From an uncultured Gammaproteobacteria bacterium (GTDB taxonomy: Bacteria; Patescibacteriota; Patescibacteriia; Patescibacteriales; UBA12465), in contig CAYSJA010000010.1 in the NCBI GenBank assembly GCA_964431235.1, positions 1 to 62,001 on the forward strand: a stretch of 62,001 nucleotides of DNA, read 5' to 3'. Under the pieces are notes generated by a model. That model saw nothing but the letters and a program-made list of their open reading frames with translations. It was not told where the DNA came from and searched no databases. Of this stretch, positions 1 to 8,019 are shown one piece after another. How positions within the stretch are numbered: the first letter of the stretch is position 1; each line of letters begins with the position of its first letter. The translations under genes were made by a program, and so were the position numbers.

Positions 1-201
1 AGATTGCTGACGCCGTTTCTTAGACTTCATATGAGCATGTCTAGCTTCATAACTACCGTCTACTCTAGAATTCCTAATTAATTCCCGCCCCAGTGATGAC
101 GGTGATCGTCCTAAAATCTGAGCAATATCTAAAAGTTCATAGTCTTGTCCAAGAAGCGGCTCTAGCGCAAAGCGTTCTTTTAAGTTAAGATGTTTATACA
201 T
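1..201 (-). CDS. IS30-family transposase, N-terminal part (truncated by window edge)
   Basis: Manual translation MYKHLNLKERFALEPLLGQDYELLDIAQILGRSPSSLGRELIRNSRVDGSYEARHAHMKSKKRRQQS matches the IS30 N-terminal HTH pattern (YxHLxxxER...IAxxLGRSxSxxxRExxRN...Y.A..A). Confidence 0.85.
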   Translation of the reverse strand, partial: MYKHLNLKERFALEPLLGQDYELLDIAQILGRSPSSLGRELIRNSRVDGSYEARHAHMKSKKRRQQS

Positions 202-294
202 ATACTCGTTTTGGTTAGCTGTTTATTAGATACATTCAGCATACACCGAAACGAGTATTTGTTGTATTAATTGCACTTCAAGCTTGAATTCAGC
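1..294 (-). mobile_element. Left end of an IS30-family insertion sequence (runs off the window start)
   Basis: Terminal-IR-like GCTGAATTCAAGCTTGAAGTGCAA (minus strand, 294-271) precedes an IS30-type transposase start at 201. A hairpin (202-215 / 245-258) lies over the translation start region. Confidence 0.8.
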
Positions 295-369
295 ACAAAT
301 GCTTGACTTTAATGAATTCTTGTGGTAATCTCATATAATTCACTAAATGTTCATTTAAAATATATTATC

Positions 370-585
370 ATGAAAAATAGTTCAATGAGATTAACTCTTG
401 TAAACATTATTGCTCTTGGATCTGCTTTTTCTTTAATTCGCAACTTACTATTTATATTTATAGACTCACCTGTAAACATACAAAGAGATGTTCATGGAAA
501 CCTCATAATGCTTGTTGGTTGCTTGATTTGGATGGCAGGAGTAAAGATTATAAATACAACCAGAGAAAAAAAGAAATTTTCCTGA
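370..585 (+). CDS. Small two-TM hypothetical membrane protein
   Basis: ORF 322..585, likely ATG at 370; two hydrophobic segments; TTGACT promoter-like element upstream and terminator downstream. Confidence 0.55.
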   Translation: MKNSSMRLTLVNIIALGSAFSLIRNLLFIFIDSPVNIQRDVHGNLIMLVGCLIWMAGVKIINTTREKKKFS

Positions 586-603
586 TAACCAAATGTTTAA
601 CAT

Positions 604-636
604 ACGACCTTTCACATACGAAGGGTCTTTTTTTAT
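604..636 (+). terminator. Intrinsic terminator
   Basis: GACCTTTC-loop-GAAGGGTC followed by a T run. Confidence 0.65.
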
Positions 637-1028
637 TGTCAATTTGTCAGCTTATCTGTATTTCTTATAGATTGTAACTATTTACACAATTTAGCTAACT
701 TTAGCTATCGGGCAAATAGTTTTCGTTAGATGTGTGGTTATAATCAAGTTAAGAGATAAAGATCTTGTTTGCTTTTTATCCTTTTAAAATATCAGTTTGG
801 CAAGTAATCTTTTTTCGGCCGGCTGGGCAGTCCGTCCGAAAAAAGATTATCCTTACAACAAACTAAAATATTTGAATTAAAAAGAATAAATAAACCATAG
901 CAAAACAGAGTTCACAAAAGTTACGGGCAATGTTTTGGGTAACTTTTTATTGTGGCTAATGTAAGCTAAAAAGTTTTGTGAATTTGGGGTAATTTTGAAG
1001 AAAATTACCTTAATCAAAAGAGATACTA

Positions 1029-1056
1029 TTGACAATTATATCCAATAGGATATAAT
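1029..1056 (+). promoter_or_regulatory. Sigma70 promoter with overlapping palindromic operator (TA autoregulation)
   Basis: TTGACA (1029-1034), 16 nt, TATAAT (1051-1056); perfect IR ATTATATCC-aata-GGATATAAT at 1035-1056. Confidence 0.8.
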
Positions 1057-1086
1057 ATGTTTATATAACATAAAATATAATTTTAT

Positions 1087-1512
1087 ATGGAGGTTGTTTA
1101 TTTTTATGATAAAGATTTAAAATACTGTCCAGTAAAAGAATATTTAAAACAATATTTACCAACCAATAAAGACAAAGAAAACATAATTCAGAGAAAGCAG
1201 AAAATATTAGCTGATATTGATGCTAAAATTGGTCATGTTAGAGAAAATAGGGGAAGACCTGCTCCTCCAATTTCCAAGCCATTGCATGGGTATAGTTGTT
1301 TTGAAATCTTAAATCCAAAAGACGCAAAGACGGTAATTAGAATTCTTTATTTCAGACATCAAGATAAAGTAGTTCTTCTTCACGCTTTTGAAAAGCCTGC
1401 TAATTATGATACAGAAAGAGAACGAAAAAAGGTTGATAAACAAAATCAAATTGGCGAAAAATATTTAAATATATTTAAATCAAATCCAAAAAACTATGAA
1501 AAATATGAATAA
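1087..1512 (+). CDS. Type II toxin, RelE/ParE superfamily (HigB/Gp49-like)
   Basis: V.FY....CPVKEYL N-terminus, KPLHGY..FEI, RILYF...VVLLHAFEK motifs; sits upstream of an XRE gene. Confidence 0.75.
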   Translation: MEVVYFYDKDLKYCPVKEYLKQYLPTNKDKENIIQRKQKILADIDAKIGHVRENRGRPAPPISKPLHGYSCFEILNPKDAKTVIRILYFRHQDKVVLLHAFEKPANYDTERERKKVDKQNQIGEKYLNIFKSNPKNYEKYE

Positions 1513-1891
1513 CAAAAAAATAAGTATAGATCCTATCGCTGAAGCTAGAAAAGGAAAATATTTTAATAAATATTCAAAAGAAGCAAAAGAAAGAATTAAG
1601 CTAGGTGTTGAAATTTATAACACCAGAGAAAACCTAAAAATCAGTCAGCAAGAATTAGCTAAACAAGCGGAAACCACTCAAAAAGTGATTTCTAGGATTG
1701 AGAATGGCGATGTCAATGTTGGTTTTTCTCTACTAAACAGAATAGCTGATGTTTTGGGATTTAATCATGAAAATTGGGGTAGAATTTTTAATTTTAATAC
1801 TCCATATAAATTTTTGTTTGTCGGAAGCAATACTATTAGCCATACTACAAAAATAGAAGAAAATGTCGCTTCTTTAAAAGTATCTTATTAA
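1505..1891 (+). CDS. XRE-family HTH antitoxin (HigA-like) with C-terminal extension
   Basis: SQQELAKQAETTQKVISRIENG HTH; overlaps the toxin stop; alternative start at 1496. Confidence 0.8.
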   Translation: MNNKKISIDPIAEARKGKYFNKYSKEAKERIKLGVEIYNTRENLKISQQELAKQAETTQKVISRIENGDVNVGFSLLNRIADVLGFNHENWGRIFNFNTPYKFLFVGSNTISHTTKIEENVASLKVSY

Positions 1892-1906
1892 TTAATAATT
1901 AAAAAT

Positions 1907-2356
1907 ATGAAAAATGTTTGGTCAATAATTTGTAATAATTCCTCTATAGATTCTCAAACTAACTTATTGAGTTTGTTTAACTGTATAGAAGAAATGAAAT
2001 TAGAAATAGACAAATCTAAAATGCCTAAAAGTGATAAATTAGTTATTCCTGCTAATCTACAACTTGTAAGTCTTTGGCTTATAGATGATTTTTCAAAGGA
2101 AAATACATCAGATATAAAACTGGAGCTTATAGACCCCACGGGCAAAGTTCTAAATGAGTTTCCTAATACTTTGAAATCCAAAAAGGGAGATAAAAGATTA
2201 AGGAGTATAACAAATATTCAAGGGATACAAATAACAGAAAGCGGAAGATATTATTACAGAATATCTCAAAAGAAAGGTAATAAATTTGAAGTAGTTTCTG
2301 AAACTCCTTTGGATATTAATTTGTCATATAAAATATTAGACAATATTAAAAAGTAA
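1907..2356 (+). CDS. Hypothetical beta-rich protein (DUF6941-like), third gene of the TA operon
   Basis: ICxxxxxDxxTNxxSLFN, LxDPxG and FxxxGxY-like motifs; 15 nt after the antitoxin. Confidence 0.55.
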   Translation: MKNVWSIICNNSSIDSQTNLLSLFNCIEEMKLEIDKSKMPKSDKLVIPANLQLVSLWLIDDFSKENTSDIKLELIDPTGKVLNEFPNTLKSKKGDKRLRSITNIQGIQITESGRYYYRISQKKGNKFEVVSETPLDINLSYKILDNIKK

Positions 2357-2411
2357 ATGAACAAAAACATATCTTGATTTTAATTAGAGGATATTAAAAG
2401 CTAAAAAAATT

Positions 2412-2963
2412 ATGCCGAATGTAATATTAGTCCACGGTAAAGACACTGACCCTACACAAAAATGGTATCCTTGGCTTAAAAACGAAGTTGAAAAGAAAAA
2501 TATTAAATTCTTTGCCCCTAAACTTCCAAAGGCCGATGATCCTATTCTTGATGAATGGTTAAGTGAAATAGAGAATTTACACCCCGACAAAAATAGTATT
2601 TTAATTGGACACTCTAGAGGAGGTGTTGCAATTTTACGTTGGCTTGAAAAACAACAAAAAGATGTAGAAGTTAAAAAAGTAATTTTGGTGGCTGTAAATA
2701 ACCCAGCTGTTAGTGAAAAAAATCAAATAAAAGATACTCACGGTTTTTACGAATTAGGAAAGTACAATTTTGAAAAAATAAAAAAGCATTGTTATAATTT
2801 TGTTGTTTTACATTCAGAAGATGATGAGTGGGTTCCTTTTTTAGCTGGTGAAGAAAACGCAAAAGGATTAAATGCAAAATTTCTTAGATTTAAAGACAGA
2901 GGCCACTTCGGAAAAAAACTACCAAAACCAGAAATACCAGAACTGTTAGATGAAATATTATAA
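2412..2963 (+). CDS. RBBP9/YdeN-family alpha/beta hydrolase
   Basis: VHG, WYPWL, GHSxG nucleophile elbow, SEDDEWVP, GHF catalytic His. Confidence 0.9.
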   Translation: MPNVILVHGKDTDPTQKWYPWLKNEVEKKNIKFFAPKLPKADDPILDEWLSEIENLHPDKNSILIGHSRGGVAILRWLEKQQKDVEVKKVILVAVNNPAVSEKNQIKDTHGFYELGKYNFEKIKKHCYNFVVLHSEDDEWVPFLAGEENAKGLNAKFLRFKDRGHFGKKLPKPEIPELLDEIL

Positions 2964-3134
2964 ATACCACCAACCACTGTATTGCCCCGCAAAAAGCGTT
3001 GACCATATGTTGCCCAGATGGTGATAAAAGTAGATATATTGAGTTGTTTTAGATAATTACAGATTAAACAATAATTACCTAATAATAGACAATAATTAGT
3101 ATATACGGGATTATTGTCTTTTTTATCTCTCTGT

Positions 3135-3157
3135 TTCGATTCCCGTTACCCGCTCCA
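3135..3157 (+). repeat. Duplicated 3' end of tRNA-Gly (attR-like site of an island extending left of the window)
   Basis: TTCGATTCCCGTTACCCGCTCCA = T-loop, 3' acceptor strand, U73 and CCA, with no 5' half upstream. TTGMCC direct repeats at ~2982-3017 resemble arm-type integrase sites. Confidence 0.8.
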
Positions 3158-3185
3158 AAGAAAAAAACAACCTTTTTAGATAGGG

Positions 3186-3932
3186 TTATTTTTTTATTGA
3201 TCTCCACATAACTTCAAACATTTCCTTATACATCTGTATTATATTTGGATTTTCAACAGATACAGCTATAATAGGTGGAACTAATTGATGAATTATAGCT
3301 CTTTTAGGAATAAAAACTAAGTTAGTTTTCAAATTTACTTCTTTTGGTAGTAATTTAACTTCTGAATTAAATTCTTGTTGTCTTTCAATATACTTCTTAG
3401 CTTCTTTGTTGTTCTGTAACAATATTTTTATATTAATATTAAGTTTAGCTCTTTTTTTAGTAAACTCCATAAAATACTTATTATCTAACTCAAACCATTT
3501 ATTAGCATTTGATATAATACAATAATCTTGATGTGCTTTTATATCTTTAATCATACTCTCATAAGCTGATTTTACTGACTCTAAACCTTCATAATATTTA
3601 ATCAAAGAATCATGACCATGCATGTTATATAAAGACAATAAGCCGGGTAAACTTTCTTTTAAAATTTCTTTTTTGCTTTCAACAATGCTTTTTAATTTTT
3701 CTGGGTTTTCTGAAACATAATACTGTTTCCAACCTTTTTGTTCAATGAACATTAATCCTTTTTGTTTTAAAGATTCAACCACCGAATACACAGTGGTTCT
3801 TTTAATACTAGCTTCTTTAGATAGCTTTAGAATTGTACTAGGGCCTACGGTGAGCCCCGCAACATAAACAAGAGCTTCATTATTGCTTAAACCAAAACTT
3901 GAAAGAGTTTTTATTAATTGATTTTTATTCAT
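3186..3932 (-). CDS. TrmB-family transcriptional regulator (wHTH + PLD-like effector domain)
   Basis: L..FGLS.NEA.VY...L, RTTVYSVVESLKQKGL, YYEG.E.V, FEVMW C-terminus. Confidence 0.85.
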   Translation of the reverse strand: MNKNQLIKTLSSFGLSNNEALVYVAGLTVGPSTILKLSKEASIKRTTVYSVVESLKQKGLMFIEQKGWKQYYVSENPEKLKSIVESKKEILKESLPGLLSLYNMHGHDSLIKYYEGLESVKSAYESMIKDIKAHQDYCIISNANKWFELDNKYFMEFTKKRAKLNINIKILLQNNKEAKKYIERQQEFNSEVKLLPKEVNLKTNLVFIPKRAIIHQLVPPIIAVSVENPNIIQMYKEMFEVMWRSIKK

Positions 3933-4098
3933 ATTTGTCTATTTTTTAGTCAACATTATTTATAGCTTTAGTATATATTAATATTGTATTAAATGCAACT
4001 ATACTAATCTTTGTCGACAAATTAGACATTATAATTTATATGTAGTAAATTAACATAATTAAATTGTTATTTAAAAGCTTAATAAAAGGAGGTAAAAA

Positions 4099-4221
4099 AT
4101 GAATTTAACTGAATGGTTTTCTCGTGATCCAGTAGGGGCTGGTATAGTAATTGGGATTATTGTAATACTTGTTTTAATAGTATTAGCAAGATTTGTAAAT
4201 TATTTGTGGTTTGATGAATAA
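4099..4221 (+). CDS. 40-aa single-TM microprotein
   Basis: AAGGAGGT SD then MNLTEWFSRDPVGAGIVIGIIVILVLIVLARFVNYLWFDE*. Confidence 0.7.
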   Translation: MNLTEWFSRDPVGAGIVIGIIVILVLIVLARFVNYLWFDE

Positions 4222-4240
4222 ATGTTATAAAAATCTGATT

Positions 4241-4339
4241 ATGGATAAAATTGTTTATGTTTTTATAGGATTATTATTTGCGCTTGCTTTGTTAATTGCA
4301 GGTCTTGGAATTTTCTTATGGGGAGATGAAGAAGTTTAG
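4241..4339 (+). CDS. 32-aa single-TM microprotein
   Basis: MDKIVYVFIGLLFALALLIAGLGIFLWGDEEV*; closely packed after the previous ORF. Confidence 0.55.
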   Translation: MDKIVYVFIGLLFALALLIAGLGIFLWGDEEV

Positions 4340-4348
4340 ACAATAAAG

Positions 4349-4459
4349 ATGGTTATTGCTAACACAGGATTAATTGTAGTAATTGAATTGGCCTGTATGC
4401 TTATTATTACTGGAGGTCTTCTTCTTTATAATATTTTATTTGATGAGTATGAGCCCTGA
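4349..4459 (+). CDS. 36-aa single-TM microprotein
   Basis: MVIANTGLIVVIELACMLIITGGLLLYNILFDEYEP*. Confidence 0.5.
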   Translation: MVIANTGLIVVIELACMLIITGGLLLYNILFDEYEP

Positions 4460-4547
4460 AATAAAAAATGTTATAAACCTCTTGATTTGATTTTTCCTCT
4501 AAAAAGAGGACATGTATAAAAAGCGCCAATATTTAGCAACAGCTAAC

Positions 4548-4581
4548 AAATGATCCCCATATTCAAAGGGGGTCATTTTTT
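4548..4581 (+). terminator. Intrinsic terminator after the microprotein cluster
   Basis: AAATGATCCCC-loop-GGGGGTCATTT followed by T run. Confidence 0.7.
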
Positions 4582-4582
4582 A

Positions 4583-4689
4583 TAAATATTTTTATTTCTT
4601 CTAATAATTTAATCCTAAAACAGGTTTGACTAATTTCCACTTTGGAGCTCAAAAACACAAAGACAACTTCGAAAGAGGTTGTTTTTGTT
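4583..4689. repeat. Cassette-junction repeat copy 1 (core 4616-4653)
   Basis: TAAAACAGGTTTGACTA-ATTTCC-ACTTTGGAGCTCAAA plus downstream hairpin. Confidence 0.9.
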
Positions 4690-4790
4690 TTATACCCTAA
4701 CGGGAAATAAAATTTCTGTGTTATTTATTGAGTTCTGGACTGGATAATGATAAAATTATATTAGCTATAATTTAATTAAAAGAGTTGACT

Positions 4791-5093
4791 ATGATTGATT
4801 TAAAAAAATTACAAAAAGATATATATCAAAATAAAATTGATAAAAAGTTTAATGTCAAAAATGTAGCTATGGAATTTCTTCTTACCCATGAAGAGCTATC
4901 AGAAGCCTATAGAGCTTATTATAAAAAATTACCAGACGTTGGTGAAGAGTTGGCGGACGTTGCTATATACTTATTAGGACTATCTGAAATATTAAACGTT
5001 GACTTAGAAAATGAAATACTAAAAAAAGTTAAAAAAAATAAAAATAGAATCTATAGACAGATAAACGGAGTGAACACCAGAATAAAAAATTAA
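4791..5093 (+). CDS. MazG-like nucleotide pyrophosphohydrolase
   Basis: EELSE...GEELADVAIYLLGL...KVKKN..R MazG-like pattern. Confidence 0.85.
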   Translation: MIDLKKLQKDIYQNKIDKKFNVKNVAMEFLLTHEELSEAYRAYYKKLPDVGEELADVAIYLLGLSEILNVDLENEILKKVKKNKNRIYRQINGVNTRIKN

Positions 5094-5110
5094 TAATATC
5101 TACTATAAAC

Positions 5111-5217
5111 AAATATTTCTAACTTTTTCTAATAATTTTATTTTAAAACAGGTTTGACTACCATCTACTTTGGAGCTCAAATATACAAAAACAACTTCAA
5201 AAGAGGTCGTTTTTGTT
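5111..5217. repeat. Cassette-junction repeat copy 2 (core 5144-5181)
   Basis: TAAAACAGGTTTGACTA-CCATCT-ACTTTGGAGCTCAAA plus the same hairpin as copy 1. Confidence 0.9.
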
Positions 5218-5353
5218 AGATAAAAATGAAAAATTTGACTATCATCTATTTAAGTATTACGGCTTACCATCCTTGATTTATTAGATGAATTATTATATCA
5301 TTAAATATCAATTAAAATAGTAAATTAACAACTAAATAATAGGAGGATTTAAA

Positions 5354-5995
5354 ATGGATAAAATTTTAATTACAGGCTTTGAGAGATTCGGAGACTACAA
5401 AGAGAATGTTACAGAAATTATAAGTAAAAAGATTTTAAGAATATCAAACCATTCTCTTGAATACATGATTTTTCCTGTCAGAATTTTTTCTAATGGAGCA
5501 GATAATTATGGTAAACAAATTATTGCCAGGGCAAAAGAAATTAATGCTAAAGCAATCATTTCCTTAGGAATGGGATCGGACATAAGAGGATTAAGAATTG
5601 AGTCACAAGCTATAAATTGGGTTGAAAATGCAAAATATTGTATATTGTCAGAACAAAAGAAAACCATTGATGATAGCTTAGATTCTAGGTCGACACTAAA
5701 GATAGACTTTGGAAAATGGAATATATCGAAAATTTTTTCCGCCTTTAAAGAAATGAATATAGTCCATGAATCAGAAATATCAATTGATGCCAACTCCTTT
5801 TGCTGCAATGCTTTGATGTTTAGAACATTACAAGCTATTCAAATCGAAGGATGTAAAATTCCTTATATTTACTTAAATCTTCCCTGTAGTCATCATGCTA
5901 TTGAGGGGCTTCCTGATTTTGATAAGAAAAAGCATCTTATATCAATATATGATGTTGAGGATATATTAACCATCCTTTCTATGTATTATATTTGA
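5354..5995 (+). CDS. Pyroglutamyl-peptidase I (C15) family protein
   Basis: ILITGFERFG, ISLG, RIE..A.N, SIDANSFCCN (cf. DAGxFxCN); AGGAGG SD. Confidence 0.8.
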   Translation: MDKILITGFERFGDYKENVTEIISKKILRISNHSLEYMIFPVRIFSNGADNYGKQIIARAKEINAKAIISLGMGSDIRGLRIESQAINWVENAKYCILSEQKKTIDDSLDSRSTLKIDFGKWNISKIFSAFKEMNIVHESEISIDANSFCCNALMFRTLQAIQIEGCKIPYIYLNLPCSHHAIEGLPDFDKKKHLISIYDVEDILTILSMYYI

Positions 5996-6053
5996 TACTT
6001 TTCAAAAAAATTAGTATAAAACGCTTTTACTAAAAGGCGTTTTTTCTATTTAT

Positions 6054-6134
6054 AAACATGTTTTTTAATATCCTCCAATATTTTAATTTTAAAACAGGTT
6101 TGACTAACTTCTACTTTGGGGCTCCAAAGAAAAA
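6054..6134. repeat. Cassette-junction repeat copy 3 (core 6090-6127); right boundary of the accessory region
   Basis: TAAAACAGGTTTGACTA-ACTTCT-ACTTTGGGGCTCCAA; GCTCCAAAGAAAAA is identical to 3152-3165. Confidence 0.85.
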
Positions 6135-6212
6135 CAGTCCAAAATTTTGAACTGTTTTTTATTAATAACAAAGTTTGTTTACCATTTATTTAAATTTTAA
6201 ATAAAAACCTCT

Positions 6213-6920
6213 TTAAAATTTTCCAAAATCATATTTTATAATCTTTTTTTTAATCCTACGATTAGTTAAAGTGAATATTCCCATTTTAAACCACTTCCAA
6301 CCACTAATAAAAAATCCTTCTTTCTGTATTCTTCTGGAAGAATAGAGCAGGGTACAACTCTTAATCATTCTAAATTTTCCTTGTTCTGCTATTCTAGCAC
6401 AATAATCACAATCTTCGGATAAAAAAATCTCTAAATCAAAACCTTTAATTTTTTGATGAAAAGAGCGACTAACTATTATAGCAGCTCCCATTGCCGCTGG
6501 ATATCGACCACGTTGTTTCAAAAAACAAATGAAATTAGAAATAAAAGAATAAATATTATAATACCAACGACTAGGGTTAAATCTTATATAAAAACTAGCA
6601 GCCGTTAACTTCCTATCAAAGAACTCTTTAACTGCTTTCTGTAAAAACCCGGGGGGTAAAACAGAATCAGCATCCAAAAATAAAATTTGCTCTCCTTGAG
6701 CAATTTGCGCTCCTTGATTGCGTTGAAAAGAAGGATGCTTTATTTTATCATTTATAATTAAACGAACTTTTTTTTCTACTGCTATTTTTTGCGTCAAATC
6801 TTTAGAACCAGCATCAGAAACAATTATTTCATAATCAGAAAAATTCTGATTTAAAATAGAATCAAGTAGCCGAGGTAAATATTTTTCTTCATTTAAAGTA
6901 GGTATTATTATAGATAGCAT
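6213..6920 (-). CDS. Glycosyltransferase family 2
   Basis: SIIIPTLNEE, DAGSKD, RNQGA, FLDAD, ED motifs. Confidence 0.92.
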   Translation of the reverse strand: MLSIIIPTLNEEKYLPRLLDSILNQNFSDYEIIVSDAGSKDLTQKIAVEKKVRLIINDKIKHPSFQRNQGAQIAQGEQILFLDADSVLPPGFLQKAVKEFFDRKLTAASFYIRFNPSRWYYNIYSFISNFICFLKQRGRYPAAMGAAIIVSRSFHQKIKGFDLEIFLSEDCDYCARIAEQGKFRMIKSCTLLYSSRRIQKEGFFISGWKWFKMGIFTLTNRRIKKKIIKYDFGKF

Positions 6921-6922
6921 AA

Positions 6923-7975
6923 TTAAAAAATTGTTTTAGCCAATTCCCAATATTCAGGATTGCCATTCTTATATTGATAATACCACCACTCAACCCCCCA
7001 GAGATAGGCTTTTTTAAAGCCAGTATTTATACCGTATTGTAAATTAGCTTTAAATTGCTCTAGATTAAAAGACTTATCAATTTCTTCTTCGGAAAGATAT
7101 ATTATACTTCCTTTAGGAACCCAGGGCTCAGCTTGAAGTTCTATAATTATTCTCTTATCTTTCGGTATATCAACTAAATAAGCTTTTAAAGGATAGAACC
7201 AGGAGGGAATTGGATAACGGATATATCCGGTCCACTTACCCCAAACTACACGATAAACTGTGCTTCCAAAAACATCAGCTAACTTTGCCTCCTTTCGCCA
7301 AAAACTAAGCTCTCCGGTAGCAGAAATAATTACTGGTCTATCATCTAAAGCTTTTATAGTTTCTAACTCTTTTTCAAAGAACCATTCATCAATAGGTGGA
7401 CAAATTCCAAATTCATTAAAAAAGGGTTCATTTTCCAATTGCCAAGCTATAATTGAATCATAATCCTTATAATGATTAACGGTGGCCATTAACATTCTAG
7501 CTAGTTTACCTTTAGTTGACTCCATTGTTTCTTTATTAATCCAAGTCGGAGCATGACATTCCGGCCAACGTGGTAAACGCCAACCAATATTAATAATGAA
7601 CTTCACTCCTCTTTTTTCACCTTCGTGTATTATGTAATCATACTTTGAAAAATCAAATACCCCTGGTTCTTTCTCAATTTCATCCCAATAAACAGGTAAT
7701 CTTATTTCTTTTACCTTTAAATTATCCAATATTGCTAAATAAACTTCCTGCCAATCAAGGCCTATTTCTTGACAAAACTTAGTAGAAAAAGTAACACCGA
7801 AAAAATCTGAATCATGCTTCAAATCACGTTTAAGTGGGTAGTTCTTAGCGATTTTCAAAAAATAGACTAATCCAAAAACTAAGATCAAAATAACAACTAT
7901 TGTTAAAAATCTTTTATTTTGGCAAAACCAATTAGGATGATGATGAAAAATATTTTTCAATCCCTTTAAATCCAT
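6923..7975 (-). CDS. Membrane-anchored glycoside hydrolase (clan GH-A, GH5/GH42-like)
   Basis: N-terminal TM, RLPVYW..IE..PG.FDF, WQLENEP acid/base, ELQAEPW, LWG.EWW. Confidence 0.75.
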   Translation of the reverse strand: MDLKGLKNIFHHHPNWFCQNKRFLTIVVILILVFGLVYFLKIAKNYPLKRDLKHDSDFFGVTFSTKFCQEIGLDWQEVYLAILDNLKVKEIRLPVYWDEIEKEPGVFDFSKYDYIIHEGEKRGVKFIINIGWRLPRWPECHAPTWINKETMESTKGKLARMLMATVNHYKDYDSIIAWQLENEPFFNEFGICPPIDEWFFEKELETIKALDDRPVIISATGELSFWRKEAKLADVFGSTVYRVVWGKWTGYIRYPIPSWFYPLKAYLVDIPKDKRIIIELQAEPWVPKGSIIYLSEEEIDKSFNLEQFKANLQYGINTGFKKAYLWGVEWWYYQYKNGNPEYWELAKTIF

Positions 7976-8019
7976 AAAAATAAAACTAATGATTATAATT
8001 TTTTAGATCTATAATCTGC

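Follow-up and report, generated by a model that had tools for sequence, protein, structure and literature searches.

A probable array of non-autonomous serine-recombinase cassettes at a tRNA-Gly 3' end in a patescibacterial genome

Introduction

What process places three short gene modules one behind the other at the displaced 3' end of a tRNA-Gly gene, each of them closed by the same repeat? This question is raised by positions 3156-6124 of a 62,001-nucleotide stretch of DNA from an ultra-small patescibacterium, hereafter the window, which corresponds to contig C10 of an assembly of 778 kb in 43 contigs (genome G000), the contig start being window position 1. Patescibacteria have tiny genomes, and little is known of how they gain and exchange genes. 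The locus is read here, with a probability of roughly 0.7, as a tandem array of three non-autonomous integrative cassettes of a large serine recombinase (LSR) at the 3' end of tRNA-Gly(tcc). This reading is based on the repeat, called R, and its link to tRNA-Gly, on the LSR genes of related elements, on the geometry of the putative attachment (att) sites, on the cargo, on empty sites and on polymorphism within the population. A preliminary description of the same DNA had proposed an integron-like array, itself free of an integrase, into which small circles were inserted one after another by an integrase acting in trans, and its claims are taken up together with the results that bear on them.

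Three modules closed by one repeat

The core of R, TAAAACAGGTTTGACTA-N6-ACTTTGGRGCTC, matches exactly at 4616, 5144 and 6090, always on the plus strand, and did not match once in 100 shuffles of the sequence. These positions had been given in the preliminary description, as had the module lengths of 1495, 528 and 946 bp, the spacings of 528 and 946 bp, and the presence of GCTCCAAAGAAAAA on both flanks of the array (at 3152 and 6121), all of which proved correct. The three copies are the only ones in the 778 kb of the genome when up to 3 mismatches are allowed, and R is thus not scattered genome-wide. The repeat itself extends beyond the 38-bp core to about 70-106 nt: a 106-nt family starts at 4589, 5117 and 6063, and the spans detected by nhmmer are 4582-4654, 5108-5182 and 6053-6128. 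Identity to copy 1 is 83% for copy 2 and 65% for copy 3, and since the N6 words differ among the three, the copies do not stem from a recent local duplication. Conservation ends at GCTC, beyond which every copy continues with an A-rich run, then with a hairpin and a T run, in a sequence that differs from copy to copy; a strict terminator scan did not call these junction hairpins, its strict rule having missed them. A scan for sigma-70 promoters returned 29 promoter-like sites against 22.6 expected and is uninformative.

Pfam bears out the earlier naming of two of the cargo genes, TrmB (E 3e-13) and Peptidase_C15 (E 3e-9, above the cut-off), and leaves the MazG-like one under its cut-off (24.4 against 27 bits). 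As had been stated, the modules encode no recombinase: Pfam finds no recombinase domain in any of the three (window 3135-6134). PADLOC gave no convincing defence match for the cargo of the window, and Rfam (window 1-8000, E up to 1) gave two chance-level matches, none of them at R or at the conserved arm of the upstream island described below. The three hydrophobic open reading frames (ORFs) of 36-42 aa at 4099-4459 have no Pfam match and are conserved in a relative of another genus (G072; 64-81%, tblastx), which has two additional ORFs among its counterparts. The order of the modules is reproduced in Logan contigs, which were available for four runs (X1-X4) from two studies, one run possibly being the source sample: in X1 a single contig covers 1028-6159 with no differing letters and one gap, and in X2, from the other study, two overlapping contigs cover 2967-6159.

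R is linked to tRNA-Gly and carries variable cargo

Of the family's 148 genomes 7 contain R, and of the order's 316 genomes 15 do (the window's own genome counted), the latter being distributed over 13 of 96 genera; the reversed control pattern had no match in these family and order genomes, and an exact scan of 185,579 species genomes gave 6 stretches of R on 5 contigs. A complete tRNA-Gly gene stands upstream of R, in the same orientation, at 11 of the 16 relative loci scanned, and at the remaining 5 the contig ends before any tRNA is reachable. With two further loci obtained from the recombinase search the total comes to 13, and their isoacceptor genes are gcc in 8, tcc in 4 and ccc in 1 case. 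An identical 28-mer of R is shared by 5 genomes.

The cargo behind these tRNA genes varies. In G009, six copies of R follow tRNA-Gly(tcc) and are succeeded by GT2 and core genes as in the window, and the modules hold MerR/DUF4325, Fic, TrmB-like, PEP-utiliser-domain and membrane protein genes. Cargo in relatives includes matches to restriction-modification methylase, AbiU and Fic-type defence families, and metagenome contigs carry 2-3 copies of R with junctions of the form R-GCTC-P', where P' is the left arm defined below. The expectation that R would be found beside tRNA-Gly with different cargo and in different order was borne out in other genomes, and the finding that would have spoken against it, these three genes in an invariant order in relatives, was not made. 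At a separate locus (L126, G139:C1:37600-51700), a GC-rich segment of about 290 bp stands twice in tandem right after tRNA-Gly(tcc), each time preceded by CCCCTTACCCGCTC, the tRNA 3' end, and by the same terminator. This segment has the appearance of another kind of mini-insert at the tRNA-Gly site.

Complete relatives encode a large serine recombinase

Five elements carry an LSR gene or its remnant between tRNA-Gly and R, and all five belong to one LSR clade. In G161 an intact LSR of 530 aa directly adjoins tRNA-Gly(gcc), with R lying 8.7 kb off, just before infC/rpmI (IF-3, L35); its Pfam domains are PF00239 Resolvase (E 1e-20), PF07508 Recombinase (E 5e-12) and PF13408 Zn_ribbon_recom (E 6e-7), and the element also holds a Rep-like gene, methylases and an AIPR protein. 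The LSR is likewise intact in the 5.2-kb element of G016, frameshifted in the 6.1-kb element of G013, interrupted by stop codons in a 2.9-kb element at tRNA-Gly(ccc) of G300, and reduced to a remnant of 44-56 aa in G009. The order tRNA-Gly, LSR, cargo, R is seen in G161, G016 and G013, with LSR remnants in G300 and G009; the 3' end of the LSR gene overlaps that of tRNA-Gly, and R forms the far end of the element. The final codons of the LSR, Ser-Gly-stop, are the reverse complement of the tRNA acceptor end, and all 7 full-length close homologues in a protein collection end in FPVMSG, an ending that is the integrated form of the LSR gene.

With a query built on the C-terminal part of the LSR, relatives were found in 83 of 316 genomes of the order, and a PDB sequence search with the LSR had no match at E up to 1e-5. 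Four LSRs (L096, L098, L099 and L100), 40-45% identical to the tRNA-Gly enzyme, have gene ends that adjoin tRNA-Gly(ccc), tRNA-Asn(gtt) (twice) and tRNA-Gln(ctg), and in the clade as a whole the 3' end of the LSR gene seems to be set against the 3' end of a tRNA gene. The window's own genome also contains LSR genes. One, with all three Pfam domains, runs off the end of contig C35 (G000:C35:1-1056, L060); no fetched LSR exceeds 39% identity to it, and C35 has no similarity to the island upstream of the array. A second (G000:C42:344-1904 and G000:C9:20648-22009), whose 551-aa open frame shares 23% identity with the G161 enzyme, converges on tRNA-Glu(ttc), and C42 repeats the tRNA-Glu plus tRNA-Cys pair of C9, the two contigs perhaps being another pair of an occupied and an empty allele. 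It was also considered whether R encodes a C-terminal tail of the LSR. Its frame is continuous with that of the LSR and mostly open, but the synonymous and non-synonymous counts given below do not single it out, and next to intact LSRs a stop follows in R after 11 codons; this is retained as a minor idea only.

Attachment arms and half-site geometry

When R and the tRNA are aligned at their common GCTC, the best 10-nt match is ACAGGTTTGA against ACGGGTTCGA, with agreement at 8 of 10 positions. The distance between GCTC and this motif, ACRGGTTYGA, is 17 nt in R and 12 nt in the tRNA, a shift of +5 that is the single best of 21; the other 20 shifts tested gave at most 6 of 10 matches for both classes of R, and the comparison covers left half-sites only. 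According to Rutherford et al. (PMC3783163), the motif of the zinc-ribbon domain shows the same 5-bp shift between attP and attB. Because the shift in the present sequences matches this rule, R may be read as the P half-site and the T-arm plus acceptor strand of the tRNA as the B half-site, with the crossover within GCTC. Two features of LSR attP/attB pairs are accordingly present, a short common core (GCTC) and a motif 5 bp closer in the tRNA.

Past the GCTC of the tRNA, complete elements continue with ATAACAGGAAAAGCAGTCCC, a loop and GGGGCTGTTTTT, whose other strand encodes the C terminus of the LSR and which form a hairpin with a T run behind the tRNA. Modules without an LSR that open with this canonical P' were found at L025, L052 and L053 and on metagenome contigs (L106, L109, L110). 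In other LSR-less modules P' is diverged: it consists of an A-rich run and a hairpin, to which a TTTGAC-type motif is often added between +47 and +72. The left end of cassette 3 of the window is of this diverged type. The type of left end seen in cassette 2 stands before other cargo in G068 and G072. The terminator-like hairpins of the preliminary description are present at each junction, with the A-rich run and the T run, but they belong to the P' arm, and in complete elements the hairpin falls within the 3' end of the LSR gene.

The native flanks of 20 relatives have the same layout, with a hairpin and T run within 17 nt of GCTC in 17 of 20. Since P' shares this layout, it may be able to stand in for the native half-site B', leaving the tRNA-proximal junction usable as attB, and this would explain arrays that canonical serine integrases should not build. 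A statistic comparing hairpin starts between B' and P' was dropped, as pairing A and T tracts blur the start.

Mobility, empty sites and coexisting alleles

The block of TrmB and microproteins (3159-4480) is 79-92% identical (tblastx) to its counterpart in G072, which belongs to another genus, against about 34-61% for the core genes near the block. In G072 the block is placed after a copy of R and not after a tRNA end, and most of the R behind it seems to have been deleted. G068 and G072 share a Fic cassette together with its R, at a tcc site in the former and at a gcc site in the latter, with 84% identity over 1437 nt.

In the relatives of the same genus, tRNA-Gly(tcc) is followed by a hairpin and then by GT2, with no R in 20 of 20 (nhmmer, E up to 0.1), and tRNA-Leu(tag) precedes tRNA-Gly(tcc) wherever the contig reaches. 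The gap between tRNA and GT2 measures 65 or 85 bp in 2 of these relatives, which represent the empty tRNA-Gly alleles that had been predicted next to GT2; it measures 421-503 bp in 11, with a small minus-strand ORF apparently filling it (by eye) in the five cases of this size that were printed, and 0.6-3.2 kb in 7.

These observations bear on the idea that R is a non-mobile functional element repeated between genes, such as a small RNA, a 3' untranslated region or terminator module, or a regulatory site. The conservation of R is high across families, as the shared 28-mer illustrates, and its minus strand is open in most copies, with conservative changes such as swaps between Leu codons. However, R has no Rfam match and its single strands fold no better than shuffles (z +0.31, -1.08, -1.73 and +0.18); 75 synonymous stand against 205 non-synonymous changes, compared with 91 against 179 in a plus-strand frame, so that no frame is singled out. 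The strict tie of R to tRNA-Gly and to the LSR, and its absence from all 20 close relatives with conserved core genes, further make a stationary function hardly credible.

The Logan contigs show that the array is polymorphic. Depth over the array (1028-6159) is 13.9 in X1, 7-8 in X2 and 5-8 in both X3 and X4, and over the core (6130 onward) it is 42.6, 22.7, 16.2 and 15.3, respectively, a rise of about threefold from 6130 onward in all four runs. An 888-nt contig of X1, with a depth of 27.9, links 3135-3164 to 6089-6159 across about 780 other letters, and differs from the window at 6120, 6121 and 6128. Both joints recur in X2 (depth 15.5) and X3 (5.8), and X4 has the second joint only; joints at 897-5116 and 3511-6571 were ignored, their sides being shorter than 30 letters. 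In X1 and X2 the depths of the array and of the alternative allele add up to that of the core. The array is carried by about one third of the population, and in three runs most of the remainder has the other allele, with its one different cassette.

It has to be weighed here whether such arrays are scars, left by full LSR elements that were inserted serially and lost the recombinase and most of their cargo in place, without ever having been small circles. Stages of decay do exist beside tRNA-Gly, from the frameshift in G013 through the stop codons of the 2.9-kb element in G300 to the 44-56-aa remnant in G009; some LSR-less modules open with a canonical P' that encodes the C-terminal codons of the LSR (L025, L052, L053, L109, L110), and G072 has apparently lost most of the R behind its TrmB block. 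Decay in place would nevertheless have to account for the retention of both arms in cassettes as small as 0.5 kb, for the combination of one type of left end with differing cargo, and for TrmB and Fic cassettes that have the same ends across genera and tRNA-Gly genes and are far more alike than the core genes. Alleles differing by whole cassettes coexist within one population, and the serial insertion of full elements meets the same problem of attB regeneration. On balance, this alternative is considered unlikely.

The orphan tRNA end and the upstream island

The 23 nt at 3135-3157 are identical to the 3' ends of tRNA-Gly(tcc), situated at the very end of contig C36, and of tRNA-Gly(gcc), at the very start of C40; both contigs break exactly at ...CCCGCTC, contig breaks at tRNA ends being explained by the mixture of alleles. 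ARAGORN finds no tRNA-Gly gene in the window. The identity with a tRNA-Gly 3' end had been noticed before, but the segment is not the anchor left by an incomplete gene: its 21 nt are the direct repeat of a different element, termed island X. In G000, G068, G071, G072 and G132 these 21 nt are contiguous with a conserved arm of about 170 nt, the X arm. Positions 3135-3155 can be recognised, from sequence comparison, as the displaced original 3' end of tRNA-Gly(tcc), which would also be the B half-site before cassette 1.

Of the 148 family genomes, 6 contain the X arm. Window positions 2965-3173 are 93% identical over 210 nt to G068, and G072 has the same 170-nt arm and 21-nt repeat upstream of its Fic cassette. 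In G071, G128 and G132 the arm closes elements of 6.4-10.4 kb that start at tRNA-Gly(gcc) and open with an integrase ORF of 381-393 aa adjoining that gene (for G132, PF00589 at E 1.5e-34); the 21-nt repeat follows the arm in G071 and G132, and the G128 element carries the same trio of Gp49/XRE/DUF6941 genes as the window. Because these arm-closed elements carry a tRNA-adjacent integrase, window positions 1-3155 are classified, by comparison, as the right part of a classical tRNA-integrating tyrosine-integrase island. Relatives have both the tyrosine integrase beside an intact tRNA and the far 21-nt direct repeat, and the window shows the far boundary only. The island genes within the window are Gp49/RelE-like and XRE genes, a DUF6941 gene and a Ser_hydrolase gene (Pfam).

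The presence of this second family raises the possibility that a tyrosine recombinase moves the cassettes, either a host enzyme of Xer type, as in dif modules or integrative mobile elements exploiting Xer (IMEX), or the integrase of island X, the LSR being an unrelated neighbour. The X family does use the same tRNA-Gly genes, directly before R-type cassettes in G000, G068 and G072, and the genome holds a 326-aa PF00589 ORF on C30 and a fragment on C28. X elements, however, end in their own 170-nt arm and 21-nt tRNA repeat and not in R, and the recombinase gene or remnant between tRNA-Gly and R is an LSR in 5 of 5 elements; the arms that flank N6 in R are not inverted repeats, and the 5-bp shift of the motif suits LSR geometry. 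A tyrosine recombinase as the mover of the cassettes is accordingly regarded as very improbable.

Several further observations concern island X. In G072 the element between tRNA-Gly(gcc) and the X arm holds a methylase, a 305-aa ORF (by eye a restriction enzyme) and an AbiU-like gene; none of the listed ORFs of at least 50 aa is an integrase. A 42-aa integrase fragment, 67% identical, lies at G000:C28:1685-1810. Positions 1-201 of the window contain an ORF of IS30 type (HTH_38) cut by the contig start, and the depth in run X1, 58 over 1-1057 against 14 for the remainder of the island, suggests that 1-1057 holds a multi-copy insertion sequence. A contig joining 2731 to 3043 via 12 other letters is present in all four runs, and its depth (85.8 in X1, 40.6 in X2) clearly exceeds that of the genome's core genes, which places the X arm in another, more abundant context as well. 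In G071 (L135, G071:C23, 12594-13682) the X arm is succeeded by a further module of 1.07 kb; it terminates in another 21-nt piece of a tRNA-Gly 3' end, after which stands what looks like a canonical P' (ATAACAGAAAAGTAGCCC...).

A proposed course of events

According to the reading preferred here, each cassette keeps both att arms of a family whose complete members encode the LSR. The right arm R, of about 70 nt, would be the P half of attP, and the left arm P', an A-rich run plus hairpin, would double as the terminator of the tRNA, with the crossover falling within the GCTC common to R and the tRNA acceptor end. In a free circle, R joined to the cassette's own left end would constitute attP, which an LSR supplied in trans would integrate at the attB of the tRNA. 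Newer cassettes would thereby push older ones outward, and with P' and B' of the same layout the tRNA-proximal junction may remain an attB. Island X would have been inserted into the tRNA after the array had formed, leaving the orphan 21-nt end at 3135. The interpretation given in the preliminary description is supported, its trans-acting integrase gains a candidate in the LSR clade of the relatives, and we infer, but did not observe, the circles, the action in trans and the serial order of insertion.

Several points weigh against this reading. A cognate LSR, which the preliminary description had suggested looking for elsewhere in the genome, is absent from the G000 assembly (no match to the C-terminal query), where the best full-length LSR match is 36% identical and truncated at the end of its contig. 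Neither a circular form nor an attP across an intact LSR gene was found, and viral contigs gave no match to R or to the R-P' junction and contained no LSR relative. An 18-nt junction pattern returned 13 matches from metagenomes, of which 3 are genuine, and all three are arrays without an LSR. The TTTGAC-type motif occurs in only 17 of 48 right flanks of junctions, and the internal junctions of G009 resemble native flanks and not canonical P'. The evidence from the runs consists of contigs, not reads, and the four runs come from only two studies. Finally, neither attP and attL nor two attP sites are recombined by canonical LSRs (PMC3783163), and by this rule the growth of an array would be unexplained unless P' replaces B', a likeness that was judged by eye.

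It is possible, and put forward here tentatively, that the system is the serine-recombinase counterpart of the integron in these bacteria. In this reading, the single-gene cassettes may each carry a split attP; P' may imitate the native flank of the tRNA, with its A-rich run and terminator hairpin; each insertion may rebuild an attB at the tRNA and an attP-like site at the far end; one LSR acting in trans may support unlimited serial capture, as well as excision and reshuffling free of a recombination directionality factor; and in complete elements, where the same hairpin falls within the final codons of the LSR gene, integration, which would replace the C-terminal 10-11 residues of the LSR by Gly-stop, could act as a switch between the free and the integrated state.

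The features of the locus are compiled in Table 1.

Table 1. Features of the array and its surroundings, with window coordinates; cassette and arm designations follow the reading proposed in the text.
Feature	Position	Strand	Remarks
Island X, right part	1-3134	+	contig starts inside island
X right arm, conserved, ~170 nt	2965-3134		
Displaced tRNA-Gly 3' end, 21 nt (TTCGATT...GCTC)	3135-3155	+	read as attR-side direct repeat of island X
Cassette 1	3156-4650	+	1495 bp; tRNA-proximal module
Cassette 1 left end: A-rich run + hairpin	3156-3200		
TrmB-family regulator (cassette 1)	3186-3932	minus	
Three membrane-like ORFs of 36-42 aa (cassette 1)	4099-4221, 4211-4339, 4349-4459		
Repeat R1 (right end, cassette 1)	4582-4650		
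Cassette 2	4651-5178	+	528 bp
Cassette 2 left end: A-rich run + hairpin	4651-4690		
MazG-like ORF (cassette 2)	4785-5093		
Repeat R2 (right end, cassette 2)	5108-5178		
Cassette 3	5179-6124	+	946 bp
Cassette 3 left end: A-rich run, hairpin, TTTGAC motif	5179-5245		
Peptidase_C15-like ORF (cassette 3)	5354-5995		
Repeat R3 (right end, cassette 3)	6053-6124		
Native flank (B'): A-rich run + terminator hairpin	6125-6170		
Core GT2 gene	6213-6920	minus	part of native flank (6125-6920)

Significance

The locus represents a defined and sequence-addressable hotspot at which serine- and tyrosine-recombinase families occupy the same tRNA-Gly genes, and at which cassettes of one to few genes differ across genera and among the cells of one population. 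The predicted pair of sites, R plus P' against the tRNA-Gly 3' end, is compact, and together with the candidate enzymes of G161 and G016 it makes the mechanism testable. The key question is whether attB can be restored by the serine integrase itself. Enzymes of this kind are also of interest as tools for genome engineering.

Comparison with known systems

No earlier description of this system in Patescibacteria was found in the literature, supplementary files being outside the scope of that search, and the accessible part of PMC12455944 contains no occurrence of tRNA, integrase or recombinase.

The earlier label of an integron-like array holds only as an analogy. Like integrons, the locus consists of promoter-poor, mostly single-gene cassettes that end in a conserved site and stand beside a fixed primary site; unlike integrons, it differs in the class of the enzyme and in the logic of the sites. 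No IntI lies beside the array, the only PF00589 matches of the genome being on C30 and C28 and not on C10, and R shows no folding of attC type, its single-stranded DNA folds being no better than those of shuffles (the z values given above), as the preliminary description had already maintained in calling R not attC-like.

The ssrA islands of Dehalococcoides share with the present elements an LSR at the 3' end of a tRNA-like gene, tandem islands and a conserved motif before the boundary repeats; there, a serine recombinase of about 540 aa (DsiB) lies by attL at the 3' end of the tmRNA gene, on the reverse strand, and the 15 islands that lack an integration module have been suggested to be cis-mobilizable (McMurdie et al. 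2011, PMC3146451). On the other hand, the Dehalococcoides islands target the tmRNA with a crossover in the T-loop and target repeats of 20 bp, whereas the target here is tRNA-Gly, by way of three isoacceptor genes, with only GCTC in common; and their integration module comprises six genes, including a second small serine recombinase, compared with cassettes of 0.5-1.7 kb and one or few genes. This likeness rests on the layout described, not on recombinase homology.

In the staphylococcal cassette chromosome (SCC), site choice by the recombinases CcrAB is relaxed. SCC and SCCmec composites resemble the present array in using LSRs and the 3' end of a conserved gene, in their tandem arrangement with internal att boundaries, in the occurrence of att-bounded elements that lack a recombinase, and in the outermost element being read as the oldest; they differ in that the target, rlmH, is a protein gene, in that CcrA and CcrB act jointly, and in a size of tens of kilobases (PMC13739063).

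The cassettes of the window, with att arms on both sides (R on the right, an A-rich run and hairpin on the left) and no recombinase domain, also resemble cis-mobilizable elements (CIMEs). Known cases of CIMEs and accretion mostly involve tyrosine integrases of Firmicutes and larger elements. CIMEs, and the accretion of integrative and conjugative or integrative and mobilizable elements (ICE-IME), provide a parallel for att-flanked elements that are devoid of recombination genes and stand in tandem with autonomous relatives at one site (PMC5704250, PMC7563491). Unlike in that comparison, no conjugation or mobilisation genes were seen in the cassettes of the window.

The tycheposons of Prochlorococcus are integrative elements at tRNA genes in streamlined genomes, in which older elements are pushed inward, and degenerate remnants, partial tRNAs and heterogeneous cultures with excised forms and tandem junctions have been described for them as well (bioRxiv 10.1101/2020.12.28.424599). 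They differ from the R cassettes in having tyrosine recombinases in 910 of 937 cases and boundaries that are partial copies of the tRNA (same source), and their description fits island X better than the R cassettes. In conclusion, the gene-shuffling hotspot is real but not unprecedented in kind; what is new is the host phylum, the tRNA-Gly target with its three isoacceptor genes, the cassette size of 0.5-1.7 kb, an arm R that is not a copy of the target, and an arm P' that doubles as tRNA terminator and LSR C terminus.

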